From Methanobacteriota archaeon (GTDB lineage Archaea > Thermoplasmatota > E2 > DHVEG-1): a stretch of DNA of 64,000 nucleotides. Under the pieces are notes generated by a model. That model was not told where the DNA came from and did not search any database. It saw only the letters and a list, made by a program, of their open reading frames with translations. This document shows positions 29,863 through 31,984 of the stretch, piece by piece; positions within the stretch are counted from its first letter, which is position 1, and each line of letters opens with the position of its first letter. A program made the position numbers and the translations under genes. Where the stretch lies: assembly GCA_963769885.1 (NCBI GenBank), contig CAVYNH010000007.1, forward strand, positions 480,001 to 544,000, read 5' to 3'.

Positions 29863-29918
29863 GTCAATATTTGACGTACCGGTAAACTGGGGTTCAAATC
29901 CCTTCCCCTGCACTCTTT
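29863..29918 (+). repeat. att-like junction 1: 27-nt arm plus 29-bp perfect copy of the tRNA-Leu 3' end
   Basis: GTCAATATTTGACGTACCGGTAAACTG|GGGTTCAAATCCCTTCCCCTGCACTCTTT; the right part is identical to 28855..28883. Confidence 0.92.
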
Positions 29919-29981
29919 TTTACCTGAAAAAGGTTTAAATAACCAAGGGTAATCTATTTGCATATAGAGGGCGGGAAAGCA

Positions 29982-31127
29982 ATGATTGGAAATCCTATTG
30001 TTAGGAAACATTTGGCGGTTGGAATCATTCTCTTGTTTGTTGGGGCTTGTGTCGTTCCAGTGATTGCACAAGATCCTGAAAAACCACTACCGACATCAAG
30101 AGGCGATTGGGTATATGTTGGTGGGAGTGGACCTGGGAACTACTCAAAGATTCAGGATGCGATCAATAATTCTTCAAGTGGAGGCACCATTTACGTCTTT
30201 CATGGTACCTATCATGAGGCAATCACGATCACTGTTTGGAATCTGACGATAATCGGAGAAGGTAGAGACGTTACAATCATTGATGAGAACTGGACCGATG
30301 CCGCGGTGGTGATCGAAAAAAGTTGCGTGAGCCTCCGTGGGTTCACCATCACAGGGAAGAAGGACGGTATTTATGTTCATGGGGAATTAACCACCATAAC
30401 GGTTTCTGACAATAATTTTACACAAAATTACTGTGGCGTTGAGTTTCAATACGATTGGGATAACTATGATAATGTCATAGAGAACAATATTTTTTATTCA
30501 AATCACTGTGGGATTTATTTCGTAAGCGATCTCTGGTTCAATACCATTAGAAACAACTCATTCATCAATAATTTTGATGGTATGGAAATCAGTGGAAACA
30601 ATATCAGAGTACTGAATAACACATTTCTGAATTGTCAGGGGAGTGGCATTTCCCTTTATGGCGGACCATCGATGGTTGAAGGTAATATTTTTACTAAAAA
30701 TAACATGGGAGTATCTGGTGGTGGTCTGGAACAAACAATTTCTGGAAATCTATTTATTGAAAATGATATCGGTCTGAATCTTGGTGGCTCAGGACATACT
30801 ATCACTGGAAATGTCTTTGAGAATAATTCACTTGGCGTGAGAGTATCTGGTTCCAATACAAAGGTGAATCAAAACAATTTCATACAGAACGGCAAACACG
30901 CACAGTTTGCTGAAGAAAACCGATCGAATGGGAATAACTGGGACAACAATTATTGGAGCGATTCATTCCACTTTTTTGGTTACAAGTGCATTTTTGGGAA
31001 GATGCACACAAAAATACCAAGGCTTTTACAATTTGATCCATTCAGTACTACCTATTTTTGGATTGGATGGATCAACTTCGACAGGCATCCCGCACAAGAA
31101 CCCTATAGTATTCCAGAAATGAATTGA
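29982..31127 (+). CDS. Secreted right-handed beta-helix (NosD/CASH-like) protein (cassette 2 cargo)
   Basis: YVGGSGPGNYSKIQDAI, repeated I.NN.F..N..GI turns, N.WDNNYWSD, C-terminal FDRHPAQEPY. Confidence 0.85.
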   Translation: MIGNPIVRKHLAVGIILLFVGACVVPVIAQDPEKPLPTSRGDWVYVGGSGPGNYSKIQDAINNSSSGGTIYVFHGTYHEAITITVWNLTIIGEGRDVTIIDENWTDAAVVIEKSCVSLRGFTITGKKDGIYVHGELTTITVSDNNFTQNYCGVEFQYDWDNYDNVIENNIFYSNHCGIYFVSDLWFNTIRNNSFINNFDGMEISGNNIRVLNNTFLNCQGSGISLYGGPSMVEGNIFTKNNMGVSGGGLEQTISGNLFIENDIGLNLGGSGHTITGNVFENNSLGVRVSGSNTKVNQNNFIQNGKHAQFAEENRSNGNNWDNNYWSDSFHFFGYKCIFGKMHTKIPRLLQFDPFSTTYFWIGWINFDRHPAQEPYSIPEMN

Positions 31128-31140
31128 TTGATACTCATCC

Positions 31141-31185
31141 GTCAATCATCGTCGTGCCGTTAAACCAGGGTTCAAATCCCTTCCC
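31141..31185 (+). repeat. att-like junction 2
   Basis: GTCAATCATCGTCGTGCCGTTAAACCA|GGGTTCAAATCCCTTCCC, followed by a T-tract. Confidence 0.85.
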
Positions 31186-31237
31186 TCTCATTTTTTTCCT
31201 GCGATGCATCCTGAGAACAGAAAACTTTAAATATGAA

Positions 31238-31286
31238 ATGTTATATATACATAACATATTGTTATAGATAAATAATAAAATGTTAT
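31238..31286 (+). promoter_or_regulatory. Probable operator array for the downstream HTH regulator
   Basis: ATGTTAT-N6-ATAACAT palindrome; TGTTAT half-sites at 31239, 31260 and 31281 (21-bp spacing), just after TTTAAATA. Confidence 0.6.
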
Positions 31287-31317
31287 CACCAACACACATT
31301 GAAAAGAGGTGAAATGC

Positions 31318-31722
31318 ATGAAAGAAAAATTAGAAATGATCACGGGGCTGATAATAGTAATTGTCGTGTTCCTGACACTTCTCATCTATGCCATGAACAT
31401 CGGAATATTAGATATGGAAAAATTTGGATTATTTGTCATCGCCATTCTGCTAGTGTCGGCAGTCCTCTACATCCTCTGGGATCGAGCAAAAAACGTAAGA
31501 AAAGGACTGCCAGCGAAGGACGAACGGCTAATAAATATCACCTACAAGGCTGGACATAACGGATTTATCGCAGCAACACTCAGCAGCGTTTTCGCCCCAG
31601 TGCTCTCAAGCATTCTCCTCAATCGAGAACTCGAGGGCCACCATGTGACCAGCATCGTGGTTCTTGTTTCAGGCTTTGTCTTCATTGTATCATATTTGCT
31701 TCTGGCGAGGAGAGGGAAGTAG
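31318..31722 (+). CDS. DUF2178-like membrane protein (cassette 3 cargo)
   Basis: Four TM segments; KDER...I..KAG motif; GAGGTG RBS. Confidence 0.75.
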   Translation: MKEKLEMITGLIIVIVVFLTLLIYAMNIGILDMEKFGLFVIAILLVSAVLYILWDRAKNVRKGLPAKDERLINITYKAGHNGFIAATLSSVFAPVLSSILLNRELEGHHVTSIVVLVSGFVFIVSYLLLARRGK

Positions 31723-31725
31723 CCT

Positions 31726-31923
31726 ATGAAAACACGCATCAAGGAACTCCGGGCGCGATACGATCTCACCCAAGAGGACCTTGCGAAGAAAGTAGGAGTC
31801 CGACGAGAAACAATCCTCTTCATAGAGAAGGGAAACTACAATCCCTCACTCCAACTAGCCCACGATATCGCACAAGCCTTGCAGACAACCATCGATGACT
31901 TGTTTCTATTTGACGATAAATAA
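31726..31923 (+). CDS. XRE/Cro-family HTH transcriptional regulator (cassette 3 cargo)
   Basis: MKTRIKELR...[26 protein letters not shown]. Confidence 0.92.
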
Positions 31924-31936
31924 GAGAAGCGCCATC

Positions 31937-31984
31937 GTCACCTCTTGTCATGCTGAAAATCTGGGGGTCAAATCCTTTTCCTTG
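31937..31984 (+). repeat. att-like junction 3 (degenerate)
   Basis: GTCACCTCTTGTCATGCTGAAAATCTG|GGGGTCAAATCCTTTTCCTTG; 17/21 identical to the tRNA 3' end; the arm aligns ungapped with junctions 1 and 2. Confidence 0.7.

Follow-up and report, generated by a model that had tools for sequence, protein, structure and literature searches.

Why should three unrelated genes, lying one behind another downstream of a tRNA-Leu(UAA) gene, each end in a copy of the 3' end of that tRNA with a similar short sequence in front of it? The question is raised by a 64,000-nucleotide stretch of an archaeal genome, hereafter the window (G000:C7:480001-544000, where G000 is the 2.09-Mb genome of the window, in seven contigs). 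The repeated tRNA end is called the core in this study, and the 27 nt standing directly 5' of each repeated copy are called the arm. Our explanation, to which we give a probability of roughly 0.7, is that the arm is the cassette-borne half of an attachment (att) site that is served in trans, and that the units are small, integrase-less cassettes inserted site-specifically at the 3' ends of tRNA-Leu genes.

Recomputation placed the three arms in gap-free register before their cores exactly where an earlier note on this DNA had put them, to the base, and its figures for arm conservation and for similarity to the tRNA also proved correct. Arms 1 and 2 are identical at 19 of 27 positions, arms 1 and 3 at 16, and arms 2 and 3 at 15. 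Thirteen positions (1-4, 9, 11, 13, 15, 17, 19, 22, 23, and 25) are invariant in all three, whereas 27-mers drawn from the window at random, three at a time, had a mean of 1.8 invariant positions and a maximum of 11 in 200,000 trials. Against the matching segment of the tRNA (28828-28854), arms 1, 2, and 3 score 9, 10, and 14 of 27, and no more than 7 of the 13 invariant positions carry the tRNA base; against any of the five tRNA-Leu genes of the genome, the arms score 7 to 14 of 27. The GTCAA-TAT-TTGAC palindrome that the note had pointed out is indeed present in arm 1, but neither the other two arms nor the family consensus has it, and we regard it as incidental. When arm and core were folded together as single-stranded DNA, the three window sites did no better than shuffled sequences (z = -0.78, -0.18, and +0.97).

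Sites were gathered from the fetched loci by allowing up to three mismatches to GTTCAAATCCCTTCCCCTGCA, which gave 323 nonredundant sites, and 79 of these have the kind of arm found in the window (type A). The consensus of the 75 type A sites outside G000, taken from other genomes and metagenomes, is GTCAATCATTGTCATGCCGGTAAACTG. Two further kinds of arm occur, type B (...GGAGTAATTATTATCC...GAATTTAACCGGTAATCTGGG) and type C (...CAACAGGAGAAA...TTTTTACCGGTAAACTGG), and all three carry ACCGGTAA(A/T)YTGG in a fixed register to the T-loop. Conservation in the profile of the 79 type A sites begins about 30 nt before the core, and 3' of the core nothing is conserved beyond CTTTTTT; no conserved inverted repeat was seen in the profiles of the arm types. 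Since the 48 units that close with a type A arm carry 36 different cargo protein clusters, the arm is a module that is independent of the cargo gene. Type C closes 36 units with 39 cargo clusters, and type B is skewed to beta-helix genes (17 of 32). A site that is conserved across the family and independent of its cargo supports the interpretation, already favored in the earlier note, of a single dedicated mechanism rather than three independent islands.

The proximal part of the arm together with the core (CCGGTAANNTGGNGTTCAAATCC, at most one mismatch) was found in 40 of 108 family genomes and in 17 of 40 genera, with up to 15 copies in one genome, and the reversed control sequence was found in none. 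The check that the note had proposed, a scan of this and related genomes with matches expected at the ends of accessory genes behind tRNAs, thus came out strongly positive. An exact, longer pattern matched 26 stretches among 185,579 species genomes, all of Thermoplasmata-type lineage, and 117 metagenome stretches. The metagenome-assembled genomes with exact matches come from sediments and are labelled Thermoplasmata, Thermoplasmatales, or 'Methanobacteriota' (for example, Thermoplasmatales archaeon SM1-50), which makes the host of the window an uncultured archaeon of the Thermoplasmata from sediment. In G000 itself, the tRNA-Leu genes UAA, CAA, GAG, and CAG (four of five) have the core as their common 3' end, and each is followed by an array of one to three units; tRNA-Leu(UAG), the T-arm of which differs, has none. 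Other arrays of this genome lie away from any intact tRNA-Leu gene (C6:290451-292375, C7:75854-76792, and others).

To describe the units, we took the intervals between consecutive cores on the same strand, which gave 168 nonredundant units. Their median length is 1095 bp (interquartile range, 660 to 1529), and 109 of them contain exactly one open reading frame (ORF) of at least 60 aa. The ORFs are co-oriented with the array in 74% of cases and antisense in 26%, and 56% have a hydrophobic N terminus. Secreted beta-helix proteins and peptidases are common cargo: a Pfam tally of 150 cargo proteins, with 144 families in total, was led by NosD/beta-helix (24), followed by M14 carboxypeptidase (8), Ig/PKD (5 to 7), DUF3795 (6), and methyltransferases (4); the families listed include no integrase. 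Toxin-antitoxin and regulator cassettes also occur. We found no neighboring gene, other than cargo, that is kept beside the arrays.

Sixteen pairs of units are at least 80% identical over at least 80% of their length. The best of these (98.9% over 702/702, 98.7% over 1194/1194, and 98.7% over 630/630) come from different samples, and neither flank can be aligned. Near-identical whole units thus stand in unrelated contexts, and therefore the small unit itself has moved. A case close to the window is provided by G001, a genome of the same genus, which has a 1.3-kb unit with an antisense 254-aa ORF just upstream of CDF-uvrB-uvrC, the position of the window array. With the unit that comes first behind tRNA-Leu(CAA) in G000 (C4:200050-198743) it shares 93.3% identity, and the alignment begins at one core and stops 4 nt past the next. 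The four cargo genes of the window have no close copy in G001, an assembly that breaks at arrays. Similarly, loci L131 and L133 are collinear over 1520 bp at 97.6% identity and diverge 5 nt past a core. The appearance of units in new contexts with such exact boundaries suggests that they are bounded by att sites that function.

The joints also indicate where the exchange takes place. Single-nucleotide polymorphisms (SNPs) in the left and middle parts of the core, which correspond to the T-loop and T-stem, stay linked to the upstream arm, and the match to the downstream unit begins only after ...TGCA; this puts the crossover at the last tRNA bases or the first trailer bases, and the T-arm copy belongs to the cassette's own site. 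The arrays have a polarity as well. From rank 1 through rank 2 to rank 3, the cores identical to their own tRNA drop from 10 of 18 to 4 of 13 and then to 0 of 5, and the three core copies of the window follow the same gradient. The tRNA gene stays intact, and direct repeats of its 3' end stand on both sides of every unit.

Read together, these sequence comparisons suggest the following mechanism. The recombination site would be about 50 to 55 bp long and would consist of the arm, a private copy of the T-arm and acceptor strand of tRNA-Leu, and a T-run, closing the cassette at its 3' end; a cassette would span from the base after ...CCCCTGCA to its own arm and core. Insertion would occur by recombination between the cassette's site, presumably on a circular intermediate, and the 3' end of any tRNA-Leu gene carrying GTTCAAATCCCTTCCCCTGCA, and a crossover at the very 3' edge of the tRNA would leave the tRNA intact. 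The newest cassettes would enter beside the tRNA and older ones would be displaced outward, their cores decaying, and the window would represent three such type A insertions. A recombinase or accessory protein most likely binds the invariant ACCGGTAA(A/T)YTGG, which keeps a fixed distance to the T-loop, and this protein would act in trans, encoded by a helper element or virus outside the arrays. A trans-acting recombinase, probably a tyrosine recombinase, on a rarely resident helper element or virus is to us the most economical reading.

Other explanations have to be weighed against this one. The units may be relics only, that is, the stumps of separate full-length, integrase-bearing elements that had entered tRNA-Leu, with arms that are alike by kinship and no movement of cassettes today. 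Tandem integration, displaced tRNA ends, and outward decay would be its classical outcome, integrases are frequent beside other tRNAs in the family (Pro, Gly, Arg, Ile, Met, and His), and a viral contig in IMG/VR, described below, joins the exact tRNA-Leu core to a different arm. However, no integrase, whole or fragmentary, is left in any of about 180 inter-core intervals, the units fall into a narrow size range around a single gene, and near-identical whole units in unrelated contexts break exactly at their cores, all of which makes this explanation unlikely in our judgment. A little less probable still is homologous recombination as the sole process, in which identical cores of 21 to 29 nt would loop units out and re-insert them and the arm, kept by descent or otherwise, would have no role in recombination. 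It would agree with our finding no dedicated recombinase and with a perfect repeat that is common to four tRNA-Leu genes and all joints. Yet an identity of 21 nt is a poor substrate for general recombination, the arm is kept across 17 genera and dozens of unrelated cargos with both of its flanks free to vary, and every resolved breakpoint lies in the final bases of the core or immediately after it, with core SNPs following the upstream arm.

We also considered an element that acts on the RNA level, with the arm and the tRNA-like end forming a 3' untranslated region, a terminator, or a processing signal of the cargo mRNA. The position of the site 14 to 50 nt past the stop codons, the T-run that follows it, and the retained T-arm hairpin would all fit, but 26% of cargo ORFs are antisense to the site (the unit shared with G001 included), the site folds no better than shuffled sequences, and Rfam matched nothing at the locus except the two tRNAs. 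A possible CCGG-N4-YUGG stem, moreover, has mismatching, non-covarying variants such as CCGGTAAAATGG in several genera, and we give this explanation very little credence. A functional split or partial tRNA (3' half) was likewise rejected, since many core copies have GGTG for GGGG and thus a broken T-stem, there is no 5' acceptor strand, and ARAGORN and Rfam call the full tRNA only. Finally, the arms could be long tRNA duplications that decayed independently, the alternative that the earlier note had named for itself. In its favor are arm 3, with its 14 of 27 matches to the tRNA, and a TTGTCNTG block that the consensus retains, which matches the junction of the anticodon stem and variable arm at 8 of 9 positions. 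However, the arms agree with each other and with the 75 outside sites where they differ from every tRNA-Leu (22, 22, and 19 of 27 to the outside consensus, compared with 7 to 14 to the tRNA-Leu genes), which refutes such decay as the cause of their similarity and leaves the explanation almost no probability. An ancient or remote tRNA origin of the arm is a separate matter and is possible: the consensus matches the tRNA at 11 of 27 positions compared with 6.7 for shuffles, so that the derivation suggested in the note is weakly indicated by this count and by the TTGTCNTG block.

Several results weigh against our own reading of the arm as half of an att site served in trans, first among them that no recombinase could be tied to the site. 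No integrase was found in any of the 168 units, nor in the 12 larger intervals of 2.8 to 10 kb between cores (phmmer with 11 integrases plus the Pfam tally), none flanks the tRNA-Leu genes of G000, and the eight PF00589 matches in G000 are all away from the tRNA-Leu arrays. No IntI-type tyrosine recombinase adjoins the insertion platform, and no helper element with a matching att site and cognate integrase turned up in the family genomes, metagenome loci, or IMG/VR, plasmid, and phage records. The arm-plus-core sequence is itself absent from every virus and plasmid record searched (0 IMG/VR contigs for the exact sequence; no match in plasmid and phage records). The lack of a conserved second arm 3' of the core is also unusual for a classical attP. 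In genome G115, which has 21 cores, the only recombinases are one of about 291 aa, whose family G000 lacks, and a fragment. In G118:C182, a 272-aa recombinase is encoded 3 kb behind an arm-core, but its group and the arms do not occur together, its close homologues being mostly from arm-less genomes and having no Leu cores nearby. Consequently, of the earlier proposal of an attP-like recognition arm, we retain the shared cis-site as established, and the attP-like role as conditional.

Further candidates were also set aside. G115 and G097 have a family of recombinases of about 300 aa that is absent from G000, and the SSV-type integrases (PF16795) of the family lie beside tRNA-Pro and tRNA-Gly, not tRNA-Leu. 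Just upstream of tRNA-Gly/tRNA-Leu(UAA), both L104 and G008 have integrases that are genuine tyrosine recombinases. In L104 (2143-3042), directly upstream of tRNA-Leu(UAA), the N-terminal part of the ORF is an antisense tRNA-Gly 3' fragment, which points to a tRNA-Gly element; it looks like an SSV-type (gene-splitting) integration into tRNA-Gly. Two tyrosine recombinase genes of G000 that are 86% identical (C6:676524-677504 and C4:123922-124917) have no Leu site nearby. They sit in separate low-GC islands (0.38 to 0.41) and are the only gene that these islands share (1.1 kb, 82.6% nucleotide identity). The arm could also have been the antisense coding relic of a split integrase, but types A and B give only short frames with stops and conservation has no three-base periodicity. 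No Xer/dif-like symmetry was seen in the site.

A bolder version of our reading would make these arrays an archaeal counterpart of integrons, of independent origin. A recombinase, perhaps of a novel type or encoded on a plasmid or virus, would recognize an attC-like sequence of about 50 bp in which the conserved arm is joined to a tRNA-Leu end, and at every tRNA-Leu gene with the common 3' end it would take up, shuffle, and trade cassettes of a single gene. We put this forward tentatively and would sooner expect it to be wrong than right. If it were true, sediment Thermoplasmata would share a population-wide pool of secreted proteins and peptidases.

The features of the window locus are collected in Table 1, where the att-HMM is a hidden Markov model of the att site. 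All three arms are of type A.

Table 1. Coordinates of the anchor tRNA, arms, cores, cassettes, and cargo genes in the window
Feature	Position	Strand	Remarks
tRNA-Gly(TCC)	28669-28745	+	ARAGORN; Rfam RF00005, 62 bits; directly upstream of target tRNA
tRNA-Leu(UAA)	28750-28877	+	Array anchor, attB-like; intron of ~43 nt in anticodon loop; Rfam RF00005, 39.8 bits, 46-nt insert
Core in tRNA-Leu(UAA)	28855-28883	+	GGGTTCAAATCCCTTCCCCTGCACTCTTT; T-arm, acceptor 3' strand, and first trailer bases; repeated at every joint
Cassette 1	28878-29912	+	1035 bp; AT-rich promoter-like stretch, one ORF; closes with arm 1 and core copy 1
Cassette 1 ORF	28944-29813	+	289 aa; GTG start behind GGAGG; signal-peptide-like N terminus; no Pfam family
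Arm 1	29863-29889	+	GTCAATATTTGACGTACCGGTAAACTG; 22/27 to outside consensus; att-HMM E = 7e-16
Core copy 1	29890-29918	+	29/29 identical to tRNA end (28855-28883)
Cassette 2	29913-31190	+	1278 bp; TTTAAATA box at 29934-29941; closes with arm 2 and core copy 2
Cassette 2 ORF	29982-31127	+	Secreted right-handed beta-helix/NosD-like protein; Pfam PF13229 (3.8e-19), PF05048 (1.4e-17)
Arm 2	31141-31167	+	GTCAATCATCGTCGTGCCGTTAAACCA; 22/27 to outside consensus; att-HMM E = 9e-10
Core copy 2	31168-31190	+	GGGTTCAAATCCCTTCCCTCTCA; first 18 nt as in tRNA; acceptor part decayed
Cassette 3	31191-31986	+	796 bp; TTTAAATA at 31227-31234; closes with arm 3 and core copy 3
Cassette 3 ORF 1	31318-31722	+	DUF2178/DUF6773-like membrane protein; Pfam PF20563, PF09946
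Cassette 3 ORF 2	31726-31923	+	65-aa XRE-type helix-turn-helix (HTH) protein; Pfam PF01381 (4.2e-15)
Arm 3	31937-31963	+	GTCACCTCTTGTCATGCTGAAAATCTG; most diverged; 19/27 to outside consensus; att-HMM E = 2.5e-4
Core copy 3	31964-31986	+	GGGGTCAAATCCTTTTCCTTGAG; 3 mismatches in 17-mer; most decayed, farthest from tRNA
Distal unit	31987-32780	+	No recognizable end-site; ORF 32061-32780, 239 aa, membrane-anchored, no family

The anchor tRNA was resolved by ARAGORN when introns were allowed (tRNA-Leu(taa) i(41,43) for 28750-28877), and the order aminotransferase, tRNA-Gly, tRNA-Leu(UAA) is also found in another genus (locus L059). By Pfam, the genes flanking the array are an aminotransferase, a CDF transporter, UvrB, and UvrC. 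Each of cassettes 1 to 3 has its own TATA-like box. The product of cassette 1 may be a secreted protein without a known family, as its signal-peptide-like N terminus suggests. In cassette 3, an inverted repeat (ATGTTAT-N6-ATAACAT, 31238-31257) follows the TATA-like box and precedes the start of the membrane-protein/XRE-HTH pair; it is a likely operator for the cassette's own regulator. The distal ORF abuts a conserved CDF transporter gene (32777-33658, minus strand), where a relative of the same genus has other genes. On the other side of the tRNAs lies a 61-aa ORF without a Pfam family (28071-28256, minus strand). Its DNA has further copies, at 69 to 78% identity, in several places in G000 and in many relatives, which makes it a multicopy small gene, and a similar small ORF stands beside an array in L058.

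Outside the window, several observations touch on the arm, the core, and the tRNAs that they adjoin. A second conserved element of about 40 nt, TTTACTGGTAAATTCGTGTTCCCTTCCCGACGGGAGCA, combines an arm-like start, a core without AAATC, and a 6-bp hairpin (GTTCCC/GGGAGC). It has 26 copies (in L023, L052, L095, L106, L128, and 21 further loci; none in G000), which often follow a Leu core at a distance of 2 to 75 nt, one of them standing immediately behind tRNA-Leu(UAA). The element could be either a variant att site or a mini-unit that lacks a gene. At the tRNA-proximal end of two units, at G000:C7:166281-166305 and G000:C4:198671-198699, the arm motif is present in inverted form (TTTTACCGGTAAATAGG and GAACCGGTATTTCGGAGTTCAAATC), and some cassettes therefore have arm-like inverted repeats at both ends. 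Words resembling TTTACCGGTAAA are enriched 60 to 100 nt after cores (25 of 276 sites compared with 6 in a control window). Degenerate copies of arm and core lie directly behind tRNA-Ser(CGA) at G000:C6:2840-2887, where the core is a Ser/Leu hybrid, and 33 nt behind tRNA-Met(CAT) at G000:C4:138579-138631; given these, the cassette system or a sister system may use other tRNAs as well. The only viral contig found when IMG/VR was searched with the core alone was L265 (IMGVR_UViG_3300031587_000020), a 6.9-kb viral fragment with terminase-like and structural genes and no integrase, which has the exact 21-nt tRNA-Leu core at 6756-6776 adjoining a different arm. The tRNA-Leu end thus seems to serve at least one virus of this lineage as its attachment site.

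Site-specific integration at tRNA genes is textbook knowledge, and the question becomes how the arrays compare with systems already described. Integron cassettes with attC sites are bacterial and have also been reported in archaeal metagenome-assembled genomes (bioRxiv 10.1101/2022.02.06.479319; PMC9668308). Like them, the units described here are small, mostly single-gene, and mostly co-oriented, with a site at the 3' end that is shared by unrelated cargo, a fixed platform with the newest unit proximal, and toxin-antitoxin and regulator genes among the cassettes. However, the insertion platform is formed by the 3' ends of four tRNA-Leu genes instead of an attI and has no IntI next to it, the end-site joins a copy of the tRNA end to a sequence-conserved arm where attC is a folded imperfect palindrome, and the cassettes bring their own promoter-like TATA boxes. 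Without IntI and a folded attC, the cassette system is not an integron. Cis-mobilizable elements (CIMEs) and site-specific accretion at att sites are known from streptococcal systems with integrative and conjugative elements (ICEs) as well as integrative and mobilizable ones (PMC5704250; PMC7563491). CIMEs likewise are att-bounded, lack integrase and transfer genes, stand in tandem at one site, and depend on the integrase of a helper, as the units described here would. They are occasional deletion derivatives beside a helper ICE, however, whereas here hundreds of one-gene units are found in many genomes with no helper in sight, the conserved arm is on one side of the core only, and the host is an archaeon.

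The tycheposons of Prochlorococcus form tRNA-anchored islands (bioRxiv 10.1101/2020.12.28.424599) that share with the arrays repeated integration at tRNAs, partial tRNAs, the pushing inwards of older elements by new ones, and cargo for niche adaptation. Tycheposons, however, are several kb long and encode their own tyrosine or large serine recombinase together with primase and helicase genes for replication, none of which the units carry. The ssrA-specific genomic islands of Dehalococcoides (PMC3146451) also consist of tandem modules split by short direct repeats of the 3' end of an RNA gene. They carry a serine recombinase, which was not seen in the arrays. The Xer-dependent pdif modules of Acinetobacter plasmids are small, recombinase-less, and moved by an enzyme encoded elsewhere, but their Xer sites alternate in orientation, which was not seen here. 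With archaeal integrative elements of the pNOB8 and SSV types, the arrays have in common the 3' part of a tRNA gene as target and flanking direct repeats, but no integrase lies beside tRNA-Leu or in the cassettes, and the units are 10 to 50 times smaller. By construction, the closest match is tRNA-targeted site-specific integration with nonautonomous, att-bounded units, as in CIMEs and tycheposon islands, from which the arrays are set apart by their uniform one-gene size, the lack of a helper, the one-sided arm, and the archaeal host. To our knowledge and in the literature searched, there is no description for archaea of a large, family-wide pool of one-gene, integrase-less cassettes with a dedicated, conserved end-site.

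Arm and core together offer a defined DNA bait for the missing recombinase and a simple signature by which flexible genes may be recognized in metagenomes. Sediment archaea of this kind are known for the degradation of extracellular protein, and the cassettes would explain how these abundant, uncultured archaea vary their secreted proteins and peptidases.

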